NCBI GenBank assembly: GCA_022897995.1 | Contig: GCA_022897995.1_4763.1 | Strand: one strand, 5' to 3' | Origin: a phage | DNA length: 64,000 nt | In this document: positions 36,465 through 50,500 of the stretch, one piece after another | Position numbering within the stretch: the stretch's first letter is position 1 | Layout of the letters: every line of letters begins with the position of its first letter | Position numbers and translations under genes: made by a program | The notes under the pieces: generated by a model | Databases searched by the model: none | Told to the model about the DNA's origin: nothing | Seen by the model: the letters and a program-made list of their open reading frames with translations, nothing else

Positions 36465-36476
36465 TGTTTGTTCAAA

Positions 36477-36503
36477 GTCGCCCATAGTGGCGACTTTTTT
36501 GTT
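36477..36503 (+). terminator. rho-independent terminator
   Basis: GTCGCCcatagtGGCGAC hairpin followed by TTTTTTGTT. Confidence 0.55.
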
Positions 36504-36511
36504 ATTGGGTG

Positions 36512-36560
36512 TTGACAATCGGATCTTGCCATAGCATAATACCCCCATCGAAACGGAGGA
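36512..36560 (+). promoter_or_regulatory. sigma70-like promoter with conserved leader
   Basis: TTGACA 36512-36517, 17 nt spacer, CATAAT 36535-36540; leader ACCCCCATCGAAACGGAGG. Confidence 0.55.
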
Positions 36561-36564
36561 ACAT

Positions 36565-36783
36565 ATGGAAACAGAAGAACAAGTCATTGCATATTTTCAT
36601 CGTAAAAAGATGAAACTTAGAATCGAAAAACAGTACATCAATCACTATATTGACCGAGTCCACTTAACAAGTACACCTTACCTATTCCGGTTGATAAACC
36701 CTCGAAAACGGTGGGATAAGTTGGATAGAAACACAAAAATAATTGATAAGCTCACCCAATGGTGGAATGAATACAACAAGTAA
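36565..36783 (+). CDS. hypothetical protein
   Basis: 72 aa ORF downstream of the promoter cassette. Confidence 0.45.
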   Translation: METEEQVIAYFHRKKMKLRIEKQYINHYIDRVHLTSTPYLFRLINPRKRWDKLDRNTKIIDKLTQWWNEYNK

Positions 36784-36790
36784 AAAGTAG

Positions 36791-36848
36791 TTGACACTGA
36801 ATAACGGGGGTAGTAATATACCCCCATCGAAAAGAAACAAAGGAGAAT
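36791..36848 (+). promoter_or_regulatory. sigma70-like promoter with inverted repeat over the -10
   Basis: TTGACA 36791-36796, 17 nt spacer, TAATAT 36814-36819; GGGGGtagtaatataCCCCC stem; leader ATCGAAAAGAAACAAAGGAGAATCA. Confidence 0.6.
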
Positions 36849-36852
36849 CAAA

Positions 36853-37071
36853 ATGAAATTTACTTGCACCGACTCTATCAGCAAACACTTTGTAGTAGGC
36901 GAAGTATACGAATCTACTACCATTCGCCAGCGTGACCTGATGGGTCGCCTTTACAATCAGCCAATATTCATTATTGGCGAAGAATTGTTCTACATTGAAA
37001 ACCGTCCGTGGGTTGCTTTCAATAAACGAGGGCGCAAGGTAGCAAAATTCGAACTTGTCATTAAAAAGTAG
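36853..37071 (+). CDS. hypothetical protein
   Basis: 72 aa ORF directly after the promoter cassette. Confidence 0.5.
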   Translation: MKFTCTDSISKHFVVGEVYESTTIRQRDLMGRLYNQPIFIIGEELFYIENRPWVAFNKRGRKVAKFELVIKK

Positions 37072-37137
37072 TTGACAGCATGAAACGGGGGTAGTAATAT
37101 ACCCCCATCGAAACGAAACTAACTTACTAAGGAGTAT
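37072..37137 (+). promoter_or_regulatory. sigma70-like promoter with inverted repeat over the -10, near-identical to the copy at 36791
   Basis: TTGACA 37072-37077, 17 nt spacer, TAATAT 37095-37100; identical GGGGGTAGTAATATACCCCCATCGAAA core. Confidence 0.6.
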
Positions 37138-37141
37138 CAAG

Positions 37142-37540
37142 ATGATTAAATTTCAAACTCGCAAAGACGTTCTGGACTTCGTTAAAGTTTTCGGTTACGC
37201 TGCATTGCAACATGCAATGGACAAAATGACCATCTCCCCAGATCAGACTATGCTGATCCGTATGGTTAAAGCAACCGCCTACAAAAACGACATTACCCTC
37301 TCAGAAATCAACGACGGCAATACTGTCCGCGAGGTAATTGTTTCTTTCGAATCACCGAAAATTGGCGGTTTTCATACCACGATGTTAGGTGAAATCACTG
37401 TCACTGTATACGGGCAAGGTGGCGGAGTGTTTACCGTCAAAGAAGCAATGGAAAACGGAACACTGAACAAAGAAAAACTGGAATTTGTCCTGAAAATCAT
37501 CAAGGAGCGTAACGAAGCTCGCGATATTCTGGAAAGTTAA
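37142..37540 (+). CDS. hypothetical protein
   Basis: 132 aa ORF with SD AAGGAGTATCAAG. Confidence 0.5.
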   Translation: MIKFQTRKDVLDFVKVFGYAALQHAMDKMTISPDQTMLIRMVKATAYKNDITLSEINDGNTVREVIVSFESPKIGGFHTTMLGEITVTVYGQGGGVFTVKEAMENGTLNKEKLEFVLKIIKERNEARDILES

Positions 37541-37547
37541 TAAGGTG

Positions 37548-37572
37548 GGCGGGAGAAATCCCGCCTTTGTTG
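37548..37572 (+). terminator. rho-independent terminator
   Basis: GGCGGGAgaaaTCCCGCC hairpin followed by TTTGTTGT. Confidence 0.5.
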
Positions 37573-37590
37573 TGACGTGAGGAAAGGATA

Positions 37591-37845
37591 ATGATTAATG
37601 AGCTAATAGAAAACTATGGATTCGTTAAATATTCATGTTTAGAGTGTAAAGATGGTGATGTGATTCTACCGCCTCAGAAGAACCGTTTAAATGTTCTTTA
37701 CGCTATTGTGGTTGATGATGAACTGGTATATATATTGGTCAGACTGTTAATCTCAGAAAGCGGATCAATTATTACCGGACTAGCATTAACAGACAGACAC
37801 CAACGGCGGATACTCGCAAGAGTAAGAATATTCATAAGGCGCTAG
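37591..37845 (+). CDS. hypothetical protein
   Basis: 84 aa ORF with SD GAGGAAAGGATA. Confidence 0.4.
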   Translation: MINELIENYGFVKYSCLECKDGDVILPPQKNRLNVLYAIVVDDELVYILVRLLISESGSIITGLALTDRHQRRILARVRIFIRR

Positions 37846-37989
37846 AGGAAGGGAAGACAGTAACATTCTATTACCGCCAGTGCTTTGAGTTATATATTGA
37901 GAATCCAACGGGTAAAGATATTATAAGCACTGCCGATATCGAAGAACCTGTTTTGATCACCAAATTTAAACCAGAATGGAACACAAATT

Positions 37990-39159
37990 ATGTCAACAAA
38001 AGAAAACAACAAAAAAGTTTTAGCATTGTTCAAAAATCTGATGGCACTATGTGACGGATCTGATACGTTCTATTACAAAGATGAAATTACGGCGATGCAA
38101 ACCCGTATGCGCATTTTTAGCTATCTGTACTTGAGCAAACCGGAAATGTGGAATAAACCAGATGCGTTAGAGTGTCGCGGGATCATGTTTGAAATCGATG
38201 ATAAAGACCGACCAGTCCGCATTGCATCTCGTCCTATGGAGAAGTTTTTTAATTTAGGCGAGAATGACCGCGCTCGCTTTAAGCCGGAAGAGGTGGAAAT
38301 GGTCATGGACAAAATGGACGGTAGTCTAGTAAGCACATACATTGATAACGGCTATGTTCAGTTGAAGTCTAAAGCGGCATTGTACTCAAGCCAGGCAGAG
38401 AGAGCAAACGGTCTTCTGTATTCAGAGAAGTATGCGGAACTACGTGCTAAGATCGCCGATATTGGATCTGATTATACTTTCAACTTTGAATATACAGCAC
38501 CAAGCAACCGAATTGTTGTAGAATACAACGAACCGTCGCTGACACTTCTGAATGTACGCCATAACGTCACAGGAGAGTATGTACCGCATCAAATTATATT
38601 CTCCGATGCAATCCTGCGTCCTCATTTGGTAAATGCGTTACAGGTTGATTCAGCGCGTTTTAGCAATATTCTTGATGAAGTTCGGGTAGCGGAAGGTATC
38701 GAGGGAATTGTTGCACGAACCAAAGACGGTCAGATGTTCAAGGTGAAAAGTGAATGGTATATTGGTGTGCATAACATTAAAAACACATCGATGTTTCCTA
38801 ATAACCTGATCTACTATGTAGTAGAAAGCGAAACCGATGATTTGCGTGCTGCATATGAAGGTGAACCGGAAGCACTGGAACGAATCGAGCTATTCGAGGA
38901 AGCATTCAGGTCTATTCTTCGCAATGCCTTCACGACAGCAACAGAATTTTATAACACACACGCGGGAGAAGACAGAAAGACATATGCATCCAATGCGACT
39001 ATCGAATCACGTAAACATGGTGATGCACAAGCATATATTTTCATGTGTCTGATGATTGCATTTGATGGTCTTGATTATGACCGTATTCTGGCTTCAATGA
39101 AAACTTACTATATACGGAATTATAAGAAACTGATTCCGGCTGATAAGATTGATTGGTAA
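37990..39159 (+). CDS. rnlA: RNA ligase 1 (nucleotidyltransferase)
   Basis: 389 aa (T4 Rnl1 about 374 aa); KMDG lysine-adenylation motif (MDKMDGSLV); upstream of the spanin and pseT genes as in T4. Confidence 0.8.
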   Translation: MSTKENNKKVLALFKNLMALCDGSDTFYYKDEITAMQTRMRIFSYLYLSKPEMWNKPDALECRGIMFEIDDKDRPVRIASRPMEKFFNLGENDRARFKPEEVEMVMDKMDGSLVSTYIDNGYVQLKSKAALYSSQAERANGLLYSEKYAELRAKIADIGSDYTFNFEYTAPSNRIVVEYNEPSLTLLNVRHNVTGEYVPHQIIFSDAILRPHLVNALQVDSARFSNILDEVRVAEGIEGIVARTKDGQMFKVKSEWYIGVHNIKNTSMFPNNLIYYVVESETDDLRAAYEGEPEALERIELFEEAFRSILRNAFTTATEFYNTHAGEDRKTYASNATIESRKHGDAQAYIFMCLMIAFDGLDYDRILASMKTYYIRNYKKLIPADKIDW

Positions 39160-44454: not shown

Positions 44455-44923
44455 TAATGAAGGGGCGAAAGCCCCTAAACCTAAAAAATTGTCAAAGAAA
44501 GAGCAACGCCAGATCCTGAAAATGAAATACGGTGGACGTTGTGCCTATTGTGGCGAGGAACTAGGGGATCGCTGGCACGCAGACCACATCAAACCAGTAT
44601 TGCGACGCTCAAAAGTAGTCTATGATGAAAATGGACGAATTGCCCGTAATGATGATGGATCGTGGAAGTATAAGGTTGTAGGAATGCATAAACCGGAGCA
44701 CGATATACTTGATAACATGAATCCGGCTTGTGTGCAATGCAATCTTTACAAAAGCTGTATGGGCTTAGAATACTGGCGTAAGTGTATACGCGAGAACTTC
44801 CAGAAGTACATTCAACGTAACATGGGATTACGTGCGGCTAAACGCTTTGGCTTGCTTTCAATCCACGATCAACCAGTAGAATTTTATTTCGAAAAGTACG
44901 AGCGCGAGCATCAAGAAAAATAA
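44447..44923 (+). CDS. HNH endonuclease (possible free-standing homing endonuclease)
   Basis: CAYCG...HADHIKP...N...CVQCNLYK His-Me finger motif; a GGGGCGAAAGCCCC hairpin lies in the first codons, so the true start may be the internal ATG near 44522. Confidence 0.55.
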   Translation: MCDNEGAKAPKPKKLSKKEQRQILKMKYGGRCAYCGEELGDRWHADHIKPVLRRSKVVYDENGRIARNDDGSWKYKVVGMHKPEHDILDNMNPACVQCNLYKSCMGLEYWRKCIRENFQKYIQRNMGLRAAKRFGLLSIHDQPVEFYFEKYEREHQEK

Positions 44924-44937
44924 TTCAAAAAAAGTTG

Positions 44938-44996
44938 TTGACAGGGGATCACCGATCCCCTATACTACACACATACCGAAACGAACTAGGAGAATC
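44938..44996 (+). promoter_or_regulatory. sigma70-like promoter with stem-loop in the spacer
   Basis: TTGACA 44938-44943, spacer GGGGATCACCGATCCCC (perfect palindrome), TATACT 44961-44966; leader CACATACCGAAACGAACTAGGAGAATCA. Confidence 0.65.
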
Positions 44997-45000
44997 AATT

Positions 45001-45180
45001 ATGAACTTCAACGAAATCATCGCTAAAATCCGCTACAACGAAGAAACCATTGAACTGATGCAAAACAATATCACCAATGGTTATATGATTGCAGCGTCAC
45101 AAGAAATCATTGATTTGACAGTAGCAGAAAATGCTCAGTTGAAACATCAACTTTCAACGGCTGGCGTGATTGTTATGTAA
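45001..45180 (+). CDS. hypothetical protein
   Basis: ATG 45001 directly after the conserved leader and SD. Confidence 0.45.
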   Translation: MNFNEIIAKIRYNEETIELMQNNITNGYMIAASQEIIDLTVAENAQLKHQLSTAGVIVM

Positions 45181-45197
45181 TAAAGAGAGGTGACTAA

Positions 45198-45530
45198 ATG
45201 GCAAAAGTTCAGGTAGGCGAGGTCTTCAAAATGGAAGACCATACCGTAGAAGAGATGAAAGGCGCAGTATTGAAAGTAATTAATTCAATGTGGCGTAGTG
45301 TTCTTTACATCAACTTTATCGACGGTGATGTGTGGTGGGCTAGTGATAACGTTAAATGGGGCGTTAAATGGGACGAAGAAGGCAATATGGTCATCAAGTT
45401 CTACAAAGGTCATACTCACTGGTTAGGAACAGAGGATGTTGTAGAAGTTCTGGCGGTTGATGTTATGCCAGGAGAGATCGAAAGTCTTAGCGGAACCGCA
45501 AAAGAAGCATTGACACGCCATTTCGTGTGA
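45198..45530 (+). CDS. hypothetical protein
   Basis: 110 aa ORF with SD AGAGAGGTGACT. Confidence 0.45.
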   Translation: MAKVQVGEVFKMEDHTVEEMKGAVLKVINSMWRSVLYINFIDGDVWWASDNVKWGVKWDEEGNMVIKFYKGHTHWLGTEDVVEVLAVDVMPGEIESLSGTAKEALTRHFV

Positions 45531-45587
45531 TGTAATATAACAATCATCGGGAGGGGCAATACTCTCCCACAAATTGAGGATAATATT

Positions 45588-45896
45588 ATGGAACGTACCA
45601 ATTTGTTTGTAACCGAACCTTTCGTTGAAGGCAACAAGAACCTTGCTAATACGGTTATTCTTTACGAAGATTGGATCTTTTACATTGACGAGAATTTAGA
45701 CGTATATTGTCGTCCAACTCCAAATGACTCATTCTATATCGAAGAAAACGATACACATAATCATTGGTATAACGGAAACGACGAAACAGACCTTGCTATT
45801 GTTCTCGAATCAGGTGTAGAATCGGAACATGCAGATGAAGTAGCGGATAAATTTGTACAATACGCATATAAAGATAAAGATGAGGATGAAGAATAA
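45588..45896 (+). CDS. hypothetical acidic protein
   Basis: 102 aa ORF with SD GAGGATAATATT. Confidence 0.45.
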   Translation: MERTNLFVTEPFVEGNKNLANTVILYEDWIFYIDENLDVYCRPTPNDSFYIEENDTHNHWYNGNDETDLAIVLESGVESEHADEVADKFVQYAYKDKDEDEE

Positions 45897-45903
45897 AAAG
45901 TTG

Positions 45904-45962
45904 TTGACAGGGGATCGGTGATCCCCTATACTACACACATACCAACGAGATATAGGAGAATC
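45904..45962 (+). promoter_or_regulatory. sigma70-like promoter with stem-loop in the spacer, near-identical to the copy at 44938
   Basis: TTGACA 45904-45909, spacer GGGGATCGGTGATCCCC, TATACT 45927-45932; same leader and SD. Confidence 0.65.
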
Positions 45963-45966
45963 AAAA

Positions 45967-46134
45967 ATGTTCCAGACTAAAGCAGAATGCGAAGCATACA
46001 TTGTAGCAAACCACGGTGAAGACTACCTGAAATTCGATATCGTAGTAGCACAGAAGATCACCGGAATGGTTGCAAAATATCTGGGTGTTAAAGAAGGTTA
46101 CTATCCAAGCAACGCACCAGAAATTAACAAATAA
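45967..46134 (+). CDS. hypothetical small protein
   Basis: 55 aa ORF after TAGGAGAATCAAAA; too short for the ORF track. Confidence 0.4.
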   Translation: MFQTKAECEAYIVANHGEDYLKFDIVVAQKITGMVAKYLGVKEGYYPSNAPEINK

Positions 46135-46148
46135 TTTTATAAAAAGTG

Positions 46149-46213
46149 TTGACAGGGGAGACACCCTCCCCTATAATATACACATCGAAACGAGATACCA
46201 ATTAGGAGAATCA
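46149..46213 (+). promoter_or_regulatory. sigma70-like promoter with stem-loop in the spacer
   Basis: TTGACA 46149-46154, spacer GGGGAGACACCCTCCCC, TATAAT 46172-46177; leader ACACATCGAAACGAGA...TAGGAGAATCA. Confidence 0.65.
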
Positions 46214-46217
46214 AACA

Positions 46218-46469
46218 ATGGCTAACATCGAAACCGCAAAGAAAATCGCTAAAGACCTGAACGTTAAAGGCTTCCGTAAACTGAAATTACAGCGTGTACG
46301 CTACACCATCGGCAAACAGTGCTCTTTCATGAGCGAAGAAGTTGCTAACAGCCTCATCGATAACCTGATCGCGGCTGGCTGGGAAGTTACGGATCTGAAA
46401 ACTTGCAGCGAACTGGCTAACAAAGGTCTTTTAGATTCTGTTACTATCAAACCAATGGGGGCAGCGTGA
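46218..46469 (+). CDS. hypothetical protein
   Basis: 83 aa starting MANIET, the same first five codons as the ORF at 48105; first gene after the promoter. Confidence 0.45.
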   Translation: MANIETAKKIAKDLNVKGFRKLKLQRVRYTIGKQCSFMSEEVANSLIDNLIAAGWEVTDLKTCSELANKGLLDSVTIKPMGAA

Positions 46470-47182
46470 AACAAAAATTAATATTCTGCAACTTTGACGG
46501 ATCGGGGATAATGGGGCTAGAATGGGCTAAAGCAGGTCATAAGGTGATCTGCTTTAATGCTGACGATGGCGACCACGGTACATACAAAAAGTATAATACC
46601 AGATTTGAACATCCAAACATTACCTATGTAAACACATGGATTGATTTGAACTGGCTGGAAAGAGCAATGGACCTTGAATGGGGGAAACCGGATATTATCT
46701 TTGCATTCCCACCGTGCACAAATTTAGCTGTTAGTGGCGCTGCACACTTTGAACGAAAGAAACGAGAGCAAGGACCATTGATTCAAGTTCATGATGTGAG
46801 GGCAGCTAAAATAACCGCTTATTTGGGTGAATGGCTAGGAGTTCCCTACATGATAGAGAATCCTGTAAGCGTTATCTCTAGCATGTGGCGTAAGCCTGAT
46901 TACATGTTCCATCCGTGGGAATATGGTGGTTATTTGCCGGAAGATGATAAACATCCTACGTTTCCTGAGTATATCGCCGCCCGTGATATGTACCCGAAAA
47001 AGACTTGCTTATGGACCGGACAAGGCTTTATAATGCCAGAAAAGAAACCGTTGCCGATTAATAAAGGGTACAGTAAACAGCATTCTAAGCTAGGCGGGAA
47101 AGGAACCAGAACAAAGACTATCAGGTCACTTACCCCGCGAGGATTTGCAAAGGCAGTATTTGAAGCCAATAAGGATCTATAA
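46466..47182 (+). CDS. C5-cytosine methyltransferase-like protein (SAM-dependent, compact)
   Basis: Motif I-like FCNFDGSGIMG, motif IV-like FAFPPCTNLAVSG (PC catalytic Cys), motif VI-like MIENPVS, C-terminal RSLTPRGFAKAV; 238 aa with only a short candidate target-recognition region. Confidence 0.45.
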   Translation: MKQKLIFCNFDGSGIMGLEWAKAGHKVICFNADDGDHGTYKKYNTRFEHPNITYVNTWIDLNWLERAMDLEWGKPDIIFAFPPCTNLAVSGAAHFERKKREQGPLIQVHDVRAAKITAYLGEWLGVPYMIENPVSVISSMWRKPDYMFHPWEYGGYLPEDDKHPTFPEYIAARDMYPKKTCLWTGQGFIMPEKKPLPINKGYSKQHSKLGGKGTRTKTIRSLTPRGFAKAVFEANKDL

Positions 47183-50454: not shown

Positions 50455-50500
50455 TTGACTCAAACGGGGACTAGTTTTATACTAGCCCCGTTTTCTGTTA
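50455..50500 (+). promoter_or_regulatory. sigma70-like promoter overlapping a hairpin with T-run
   Basis: TTGACT 50455-50460, 18 nt spacer, TATACT 50479-50484; ACGGGGACTAGT...ACTAGCCCCGT stem followed by TTTTCTGTT. Confidence 0.5.

Follow-up and report, generated by a model that had tools for sequence, protein, structure and literature searches.

A near-identical pair of promoter/stem-loop cassettes brackets a 72-aa ORFan in an RB49-like phage and holds the breakpoints of natural variants

The stretch of phage DNA analysed here (64,000 nucleotides; hereafter the window) comes from a Krischvirus, a member of the RB49/phi1/JSE group, and its region of interest is 95-98% identical to ECD7, Skers, UPWr_E1, JSE, RB49, phi1 and others. 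Three successive small ORFs, homologues of RB49p228, RB49p227 and RB49p225, form a block in which each ORF is preceded by an intergenic promoter cassette, and we refer to these cassettes as 0, 1 and 2 (Table 1). All of the small ORFs here fall into PHROGs of unknown function, and no Pfam match was obtained for them. A terminator scan of the locus detected canonical terminators only at 36474-36503 and 37547-37575, so that they bracket the three-ORF block. A 152-aa ORF on the minus strand (36682..37140) also runs across the region. It was dismissed as a gene candidate: it has a TTG start, lies antisense to two conserved PHROG ORFs and would be disrupted in every one of the alternative architectures described below.

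Table 1. Positions in the window of the ORFs, cassettes and hairpins of the locus
Feature	Position	Strand	Parts or remarks	Basis
Cassette 0, weaker family member	36474..36564	+	terminator hairpin and T-run 36474-36503; -35 TTGACA 36512-36517; -10 CATAAT 36535-36540; ATG 36565	repeat search, motif search, folding, promoter/terminator scan
Upstream 72-aa ORFan, RB49p228 homologue, phrog_18672	36565..36783	+	two 55-aa ORFs instead in E26, ELT4 and 011D4	
Cassette 1, between RB49p228 and RB49p227 homologues	36781..36852	+	stop TAA 36781-36783; -35 TTGACA 36791-36796; -10 TAATAT 36814-36819; +1 near A36826 (inferred from -10 spacing); SD AAGGAG 36840-36845; ATG 36853	sequence, repeat search, promoter scan
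Cassette 1 hairpin	36806..36825	+	GGGGGTA / loop GTAATA / TACCCCC	folding vs shuffles
Bracketed 72-aa ORFan, RB49p227 homologue, phrog_14957	36853..37071	+	function unknown; deleted unit in ELT3 and AV108	
Cassette 2, between RB49p227 and RB49p225 homologues	37062..37141	+	stop TAG 37069-37071 abutting -35 TTGACA 37072-37077; -10 TAATAT 37095-37100; predicted +1 near 37107; SD AAGGAG 37129-37134; ATG 37142	sequence, repeat search, promoter scan
Cassette 2 hairpin	37087..37106	+	identical to cassette 1 hairpin	folding vs shuffles
Downstream 132-aa ORFan, RB49p225 homologue, phrog_10173	37142-37540	+	terminator 37547-37575 closes block	

A preliminary description of this DNA had reported two near-identical cassettes about 280 bp apart, with promoters at 36791 and 37072, bracketing a single small ORF, and the present analysis bears this out. 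In a repeat search, 36781-36841 and 37062-37122 form a direct repeat of 61 nt with 87% identity in ungapped alignment and a start-to-start distance of 281 nt. The -35 hexamers begin at exactly the two positions named, and the one 72-aa ORF lies between the copies. When both cassettes are aligned in register, the first exact block is 16 nt long (TAAAAAGTAGTTGACA). It is followed by six mismatched spacer positions, CTGAAT in cassette 1 and GCATGA in cassette 2, and then by a second exact block of 30 nt (AACGGGGGTAGTAATATACCCCCATCGAAA, 36803-36832 = 37084-37113), after which the leaders are partly similar. Given these two exact blocks, identity is not restricted to the -35 and -10 hexamers. The 30-mer is the longest exact direct repeat of the whole window, and the similarity of cassettes 1 and 2 is far beyond chance: in 30 dinucleotide-preserving shuffles of the window the longest repeat had a mean length of 15.6 nt and a maximum of 19. 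The sequence TACCCCCATCGAAA occurs three times exactly, and five times when up to two mismatches are allowed, compared with 0.34 occurrences expected. Two features had gone unmentioned in the preliminary description. One is a third and weaker copy (36512-36555), which lies about 280 bp and one gene upstream of cassette 1; TACCCCCATCGAAACG is common to cassettes 0, 1 and 2. The other is a 7-bp inverted repeat, GGGGGTA/TACCCCC, within the block common to both copies. The two successive 72-aa ORFs gave no BLASTP alignment with each other even at E <= 100, and they belong to different PHROGs. Since the two ORFs are unrelated, it is the regulatory cassette alone that is repeated and not the genes.

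Both promoters consist of TTGACA, a 17-nt spacer and TAATAT, matching the consensus at 10 of 12 positions. Ahead of the -35 comes an A-rich tract in which the upstream ORF has its stop codon (cassette 1, gTAAAAAGTAG-TTGACA; cassette 2, ATTAAAAAGTAG-TTGACA), and the leader of each cassette is A/C-rich, with AAGGAG placed 7 nt before ATG. Folding of the hairpins (7-bp stem, 6-nt loop) yields -14 kcal/mol, a z of about -3, which no more than 1-2 of 200 shuffled sequences equal. Each hairpin overlaps the -10 and ends at about -1 relative to the predicted transcription start. Consequently, it would be absent from the transcript of its own cassette and would be present only in RNA initiated upstream. 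Downstream of both hairpins lies ATCGAAA, with no T-tract, and a canonical intrinsic terminator was rejected because no T-run follows the stem. A known structured RNA was likewise rejected, since a search of the region against Rfam gave only two matches at chance level, 22.8 and 20.2 bits versus gathering scores of 70 and 50.

A simple scan found about 17 cassettes of the same design in the window, all on the plus strand. The -35, the -10, a CATCGAAAC-type leader and AGGAG are common to all of them. Strong G+C-rich hairpins are present in 12 of the 17 and fall into two positional classes; in the class of cassettes 1 and 2 the hairpin lies over the -10 and ends 7-9 nt past it (2638, 10238, 10520, 36791, 37072 and 48040). 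Stem sequences vary while pairing is kept, as in GGGGGTA/TACCCCC, GGGAGTA/TACTCCC, GGGTGTAT/ATACACCC, GGGGATC/GATCCCC and GGGGAG/CTCCCC. Among 15 different cassettes of the focal class, pairing holds in 97% of cells; in slid controls the figure is mostly about 51%, rising to 79% for a slide of -2. One stem position alternates between G-C (eight cases) and A-U (six cases), with a G.U intermediate in RB49 cassette 1. This supports selection on the hairpin as a structure, a reading that rests on one covarying position among related sequences; conversion could carry both arms of a stem together and thereby mimic covariation. The cassettes at 2270-2320 and 50455-50500 have a T-run after the hairpin that overlaps the -10 (AAAGGGAGA...TCTCCCTTTTCTTTT and ACGGGGACTAG...CTAGCCCCGTTTTCT), and these promoter-embedded hairpins, unlike those of cassettes 1 and 2, resemble canonical intrinsic terminators.

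Within the family, cassettes 1 and 2 are the most similar pair, with 83% identity over 65 nt compared with a median of 48%. The second most similar pair has its -35 elements at 44938 and 45904 (44929-44990 and 45895-45956), with a neighbouring cassette at 46149. In megablast comparisons with other Krischviruses, homology is interrupted at about 44928, 45895 and 46135, each time just upstream of a cassette. At least 80% of the interval 44500-46700 is covered by only 2 of 59 Krischvirus records, which makes it far more plastic than the focal locus.

Elements of this design are already known as PeSLs (promoter-early stem-loops), which number about 50 per genome in RB49/phi1 (Arbiol et al. 2010, Genome Biol Evol 2:140, PMC2839356). 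As defined there, the 5' part of a PeSL comprises an AT-rich tract, which holds the upstream stop codon, and after it a sigma-70 consensus promoter (PMC2839356). Both of our cassettes have such a tract with its stop codon, followed by TTGACA-17 nt-TAATAT at 36791-36819 and 37072-37100. The published stem-loop is of the polyG/polyC type and lies mostly between the boxes or over the -10 (PMC2839356), and a polyG/polyC hairpin over the -10 is what both cassettes contain. PeSLs end in an SD and ATG and are found mostly upstream of ORFans in hyperplastic regions (PMC2839356). Correspondingly, both cassettes end in AAGGAG and ATG, they are part of a repeated family upstream of ORFans in a T4-type genome, and indels and replacements among close relatives have their breakpoints in the cassettes. 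With every defining feature that can be read from the DNA matched, we identify cassettes 1 and 2 as PeSLs. Promoter and terminator/attenuator activity was demonstrated by lacZ fusions for PeSLs 193/192, 206/205 and 211/210 only (PMC2839356). In the published model, neighbouring PeSLs recombine and ORFans are thereby deleted, inserted or swapped (PMC2839356). The ORFan mini-circles predicted by this model were detected; their crossovers mapped to stretches of 100% homology in the zone from the -10 to the SD/ATG (PMC2839356). The PeSL idea was later extended to T4/PST and KVP40/nt-1 (Comeau et al. 2014, PMC4122927). In the window, an exact 20-nt repeat covering leader, SD and start codon (AACAAAGGAGAATCAAAATG) occurs in two distant cassettes, at 2867-2886 and 36836-36855; the 3' leader/SD part of PeSLs is thus also a dispersed repeat.

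Gene content was compared in the 59 Krischvirus records over the interval running from the phosphatase gene as far as the 132-aa ORF, and representatives were read at the sequence level. RB49 numbering is used, in which 228 denotes 36565-36783 of the window, 227 the bracketed ORF and 225 the ORF at 37142-37540. Four architectures were found. Architecture A, 228-227-225, is that of the window, JSE, ECD7, Skers and others (13 records). Architecture B, 228-227-226-225, occurs in RB49, phi1, GEC-3S, kaaroe and others, about 41 records by a count judged mostly by span, with sequences read for RB49, GEC-3S and kaaroe; these RB49-type genomes have an extra ORF, RB49p226, and one more cassette at the position of cassette 2. 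Architecture C, 228-226-225, is found in ELT3 and AV108 and is without the bracketed ORF. In architecture D, 55aa-55aa-227-226-225 (E26, ELT4 and 011D4), two unrelated 55-aa ORFs take the place of 228, the exchange lying at cassette 0/1. The IMG/VR and metagenome contigs added only 2 + 2 loci; the only complete genome of metagenomic origin (L012) belongs to architecture A, and the stem of its cassette 1, GGGAG/CTCCC, is fully compensated.

Of the 59 records, 57 contain a single copy of the bracketed ORF. In the remaining two, ELT3 and AV108, exactly the segment corresponding to 36853-37071 is missing and a single chimeric cassette stands there. No duplication of the ORF was found in the 59 records at either the DNA or the protein level. 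According to the preliminary description, homologous recombination between the repeats could delete or duplicate the enclosed gene, and relatives that lack or duplicate it were to be looked for; deletion is borne out by 2 of 59 records, duplication by 0 of 59. Since so few records lack the ORF and none duplicates it, either recombination at this pair seldom happens or selection usually acts against its products. Presence and absence alone do not distinguish deletion from insertion for the individual events. No copy of the bracketed ORF was found outside Krischvirus, and neither RB49p226 nor the 55-aa ORFs of E26 have a copy elsewhere in the window. A search for the E26-type 55-aa pair at other sites was also negative, the pair occurring only at this locus, in three records. 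As none of these alternative ORFs has relocated, the 're-insertion elsewhere' half of the mini-circle model finds no support here.

Two further differences among the genomes were observed near the locus. A homing endonuclease gene lies directly upstream of nrdB in JSE (L002 1-425) and AV108 (L005 1-37) and is absent from RB49, ELT3, E26 and kaaroe, and thus constitutes another presence/absence polymorphism. In addition, denA (endonuclease II; window 37591-38054) has two extra nucleotides, TA, in a (TA)n run near 37737-37746 and is thereby split, the tract reading GGTATATATATTGG in the window versus GGTATATATTGG in RB49. The ORF ends after 84 aa and the rest of DenA is in another frame. The same frameshift is present in ELT3, and denA is intact in RB49, JSE and AV108. 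The split could be a real pseudogene, a phase-variable tract or a shared sequencing error.

The junction cassettes place the crossovers more precisely. In ELT3 the 5' part of the single cassette is that of cassette 1 (the end of 228, TTGACA and the spacer ctgaataa), and the 3' part is the RB49 cassette-2 leader (cgaaacgaaatacactttaaggagaatcaaATGaac). The combination of a cassette-1 spacer with a cassette-2 leader puts the crossover within the shared hairpin block, that is, within the 30-nt identical block. In AV108 the junction retains the cassette 1 leader as far as the SD/ATG, and its crossover point differs from that of ELT3. The genomic backgrounds differ as well: AV108 has the homing endonuclease beside nrdB and an intact denA, and denA is frameshifted in ELT3. 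These different backgrounds suggest that the two losses were independent events, later conversion being an alternative. The window itself carries a comparable composite. Its cassette 2 is the same as RB49 cassette 2 up to ...CATCGAAACGAAA and then continues into the SD of the 225 gene, so that, measured against architecture B, it is itself a junction cassette. The spacer of cassette 1 is found in cassette 2 of E26 and GEC-3S with nothing deleted, a swap that indicates a patch of conversion. In RB49, the 3' arm and the -10 of cassette 1 are those of cassette 3, which explains the G.T mismatch in the stem of cassette 1. Every breakpoint at the three-gene locus falls within a PeSL, and the crossover zones, from the -10 to the SD/ATG, are those mapped experimentally for the mini-circles (PMC2839356).

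Not all cassettes in the relatives are intact. In AV108 the cassette between the 226 and 225 homologues (L005, about 2205-2290) is scrambled, with the -35 lost and tagtaagatact duplicated (gcagttggggagtagtaagatacttagtaagatactccc); it looks like the product of slippage or rearrangement within the hairpin. The GEC-3S orthologue of cassette 1 (L010, about 1997-2060) is degraded, with TTTACA as its -35, TACCCC as its 3' arm and a different leader; it is nevertheless annotated as a promoter.

Taking together the observed repeat, the anatomy of the cassettes, their membership of a family and the natural variants with breakpoints inside cassettes, we consider it highly likely that cassettes 1 and 2 are PeSLs, which are at once sigma-70 early promoter/hairpin/leader modules, serving to insulate and drive single ORFans, and, as dispersed direct repeats, substrates of the phage's general homologous recombination, through which ORFans are deleted, inserted, replaced or converted. 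For cassettes 1 and 2 in particular, promoter and attenuator activity, the recombination pathway and mini-circles are what we infer or take from the literature. Each cassette would end the upstream ORFan in its A-rich tract and supply a near-consensus early promoter for the host sigma-70 polymerase. The G5/C5 hairpin, predicted to be transcribed only by polymerases arriving from upstream, may attenuate or terminate read-through or may stabilise 3' ends. The next ORFan would then be provided with a short unstructured leader and a strong SD. At the DNA level, direct copies that are near-identical over 30-60 nt would allow neighbouring cassettes to cross over by the very active general homologous recombination of the phage. 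Such a crossover would remove the enclosed ORFan, possibly as a mini-circle, or would insert or swap units of an ORFan plus its cassette. Because one intact chimeric cassette would always be left, expression of the neighbours would be preserved. Exchange without crossover, that is, gene conversion, would keep some pairs such as cassettes 1 and 2 nearly identical. Recombination between the direct repeats had been put forward in the preliminary description, and the chimeric cassettes of ELT3 and AV108 agree with its deletion part; the mechanism is the one already published as the PeSL model.

A different account is that the cassettes resemble each other through functional constraint on early promoter, leader and SD, and that genes changed by illegitimate or microhomology events which survived in intergenic DNA. 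The -35, -10, leader type and AGGAG shared by all cassettes are compatible with this, the AV108 junction can be explained by about 13 nt of homology in the SD region, and only intergenic breakpoints would leave a viable phage. However, constraint does not readily explain why the focal pair exceeds the family median so clearly (83% versus 48%), with identity extending to positions that look unconstrained, such as the AAC ahead of the stem and the loop. In ELT3 the junction falls within the identical 30-nt stretch, the spacer swaps of E26 and GEC-3S without deletion point to real homologous exchange, and the junctions of the experimental mini-circles were in regions of 100% homology (PMC2839356). 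On balance we regard this account as unlikely.

A special role in recombination can also be imagined for the hairpin. That the G5/C5 stem is a folded-DNA recognition site for a phage protein which nicks or pairs PeSLs, with integron-like, site-directed shuffling as the result, has in our estimation only a slim chance of being correct; were it true, the near-identity of cassettes 1 and 2 would reflect active homogenisation. Very improbable, too, is the proposal that a dedicated DNA-binding or nicking protein targets the GGGG...CCCC hairpin and that exchange is site-specific in place of general homologous recombination. Arbiol et al. raised such a speculation, citing T4 deletions at GGGC/GCCC motifs (PMC2839356), and the strong conservation of the hairpin as a structure fits it. 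The crossovers, however, are scattered: ELT3 has its crossover inside the hairpin block, AV108 at the SD/ATG, the window (compared with RB49) between hairpin and SD, and E26 in the leader. An attC-type site as in integrons was rejected on the grounds that the crossover intervals differ among these cases. Moreover, both the sequence and the position of the hairpin differ between cassette classes, and RB49/phi1 are not known to have any recombinase or integrase besides the T4-type machinery (PMC2839356).

That the repeat is the remnant of a tandem duplication of gene plus promoter, with the two 72-aa ORFs as paralogues, is scarcely credible: successive ORFs of 72 aa and three cassettes spaced 279 and 281 nt apart might suggest it, but the similarity ends at the cassette borders and, with no BLASTP alignment at E <= 100 and different PHROGs, the repeated units contain no homologous coding sequence, which refutes it at the sequence level.

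We believe, then, that exchange between PeSLs by general homologous recombination remains the best description of this locus. The original observation is real and was correctly interpreted, and it is already known, being an instance of a class of elements published in 2010 for this phage group. The sole increment is descriptive, namely that natural variants have lost exactly the bracketed ORF, probably twice. The locus thus offers an independently rediscovered, clean example of a published mechanism of modular evolution in T4-type phages, and some small support for it from natural history; it opens no new question. For annotators and phage engineers it carries a warning, as small ORFans between near-identical PeSLs are unstable units, and PeSLs suggest themselves as natural landing pads for insertions.

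Compared with the PeSLs of Arbiol et al., the cassettes described here differ in nothing essential. They come from the same phage genus, occupy orthologous intergenic positions (RB49p228/227 and 227/226-225), have the same list of parts, lie upstream of ORFans, and share the association with indels and the crossovers between the -10 and the SD/ATG. This locus is alike in RB49 and phi1 and hence was outside the worked examples of that study. RB49 cassettes 1 and 2 are also less alike than those of the window, RB49 cassette 1 having TAAGAT and a G.T mismatch in the stem. The four architectures, and the loss of the 227 homologue from ELT3 and AV108, were seen in genomes sequenced after Arbiol et al.

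Other systems share part of this organisation. The 'linker' sequences of Botstein and Campbell in lambdoid phages are likewise short, conserved intergenic points of homologous crossover at which modules are swapped with regulation left intact. Those linkers lie between functional modules of temperate phages, whereas PeSLs are dense (about 50 per genome) and sit around individual ORFans of a lytic T4-type phage, every one with a promoter and hairpin to itself. Morons (Hendrix et al. 2000) are also single extra genes between resident genes, with their own promoter and terminator; in contrast to them, the flanks here form a repeated family and the breakpoints lie inside the flanks. Integron gene cassettes with their attC sites again consist of small promoter-served ORF units, possibly circular, bounded by sites that contain imperfect inverted repeats. 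Integrons, however, require an integrase and a fixed crossover point in the folded attC, while PeSLs have variable crossover points, no known integrase and a promoter of their own for each unit.
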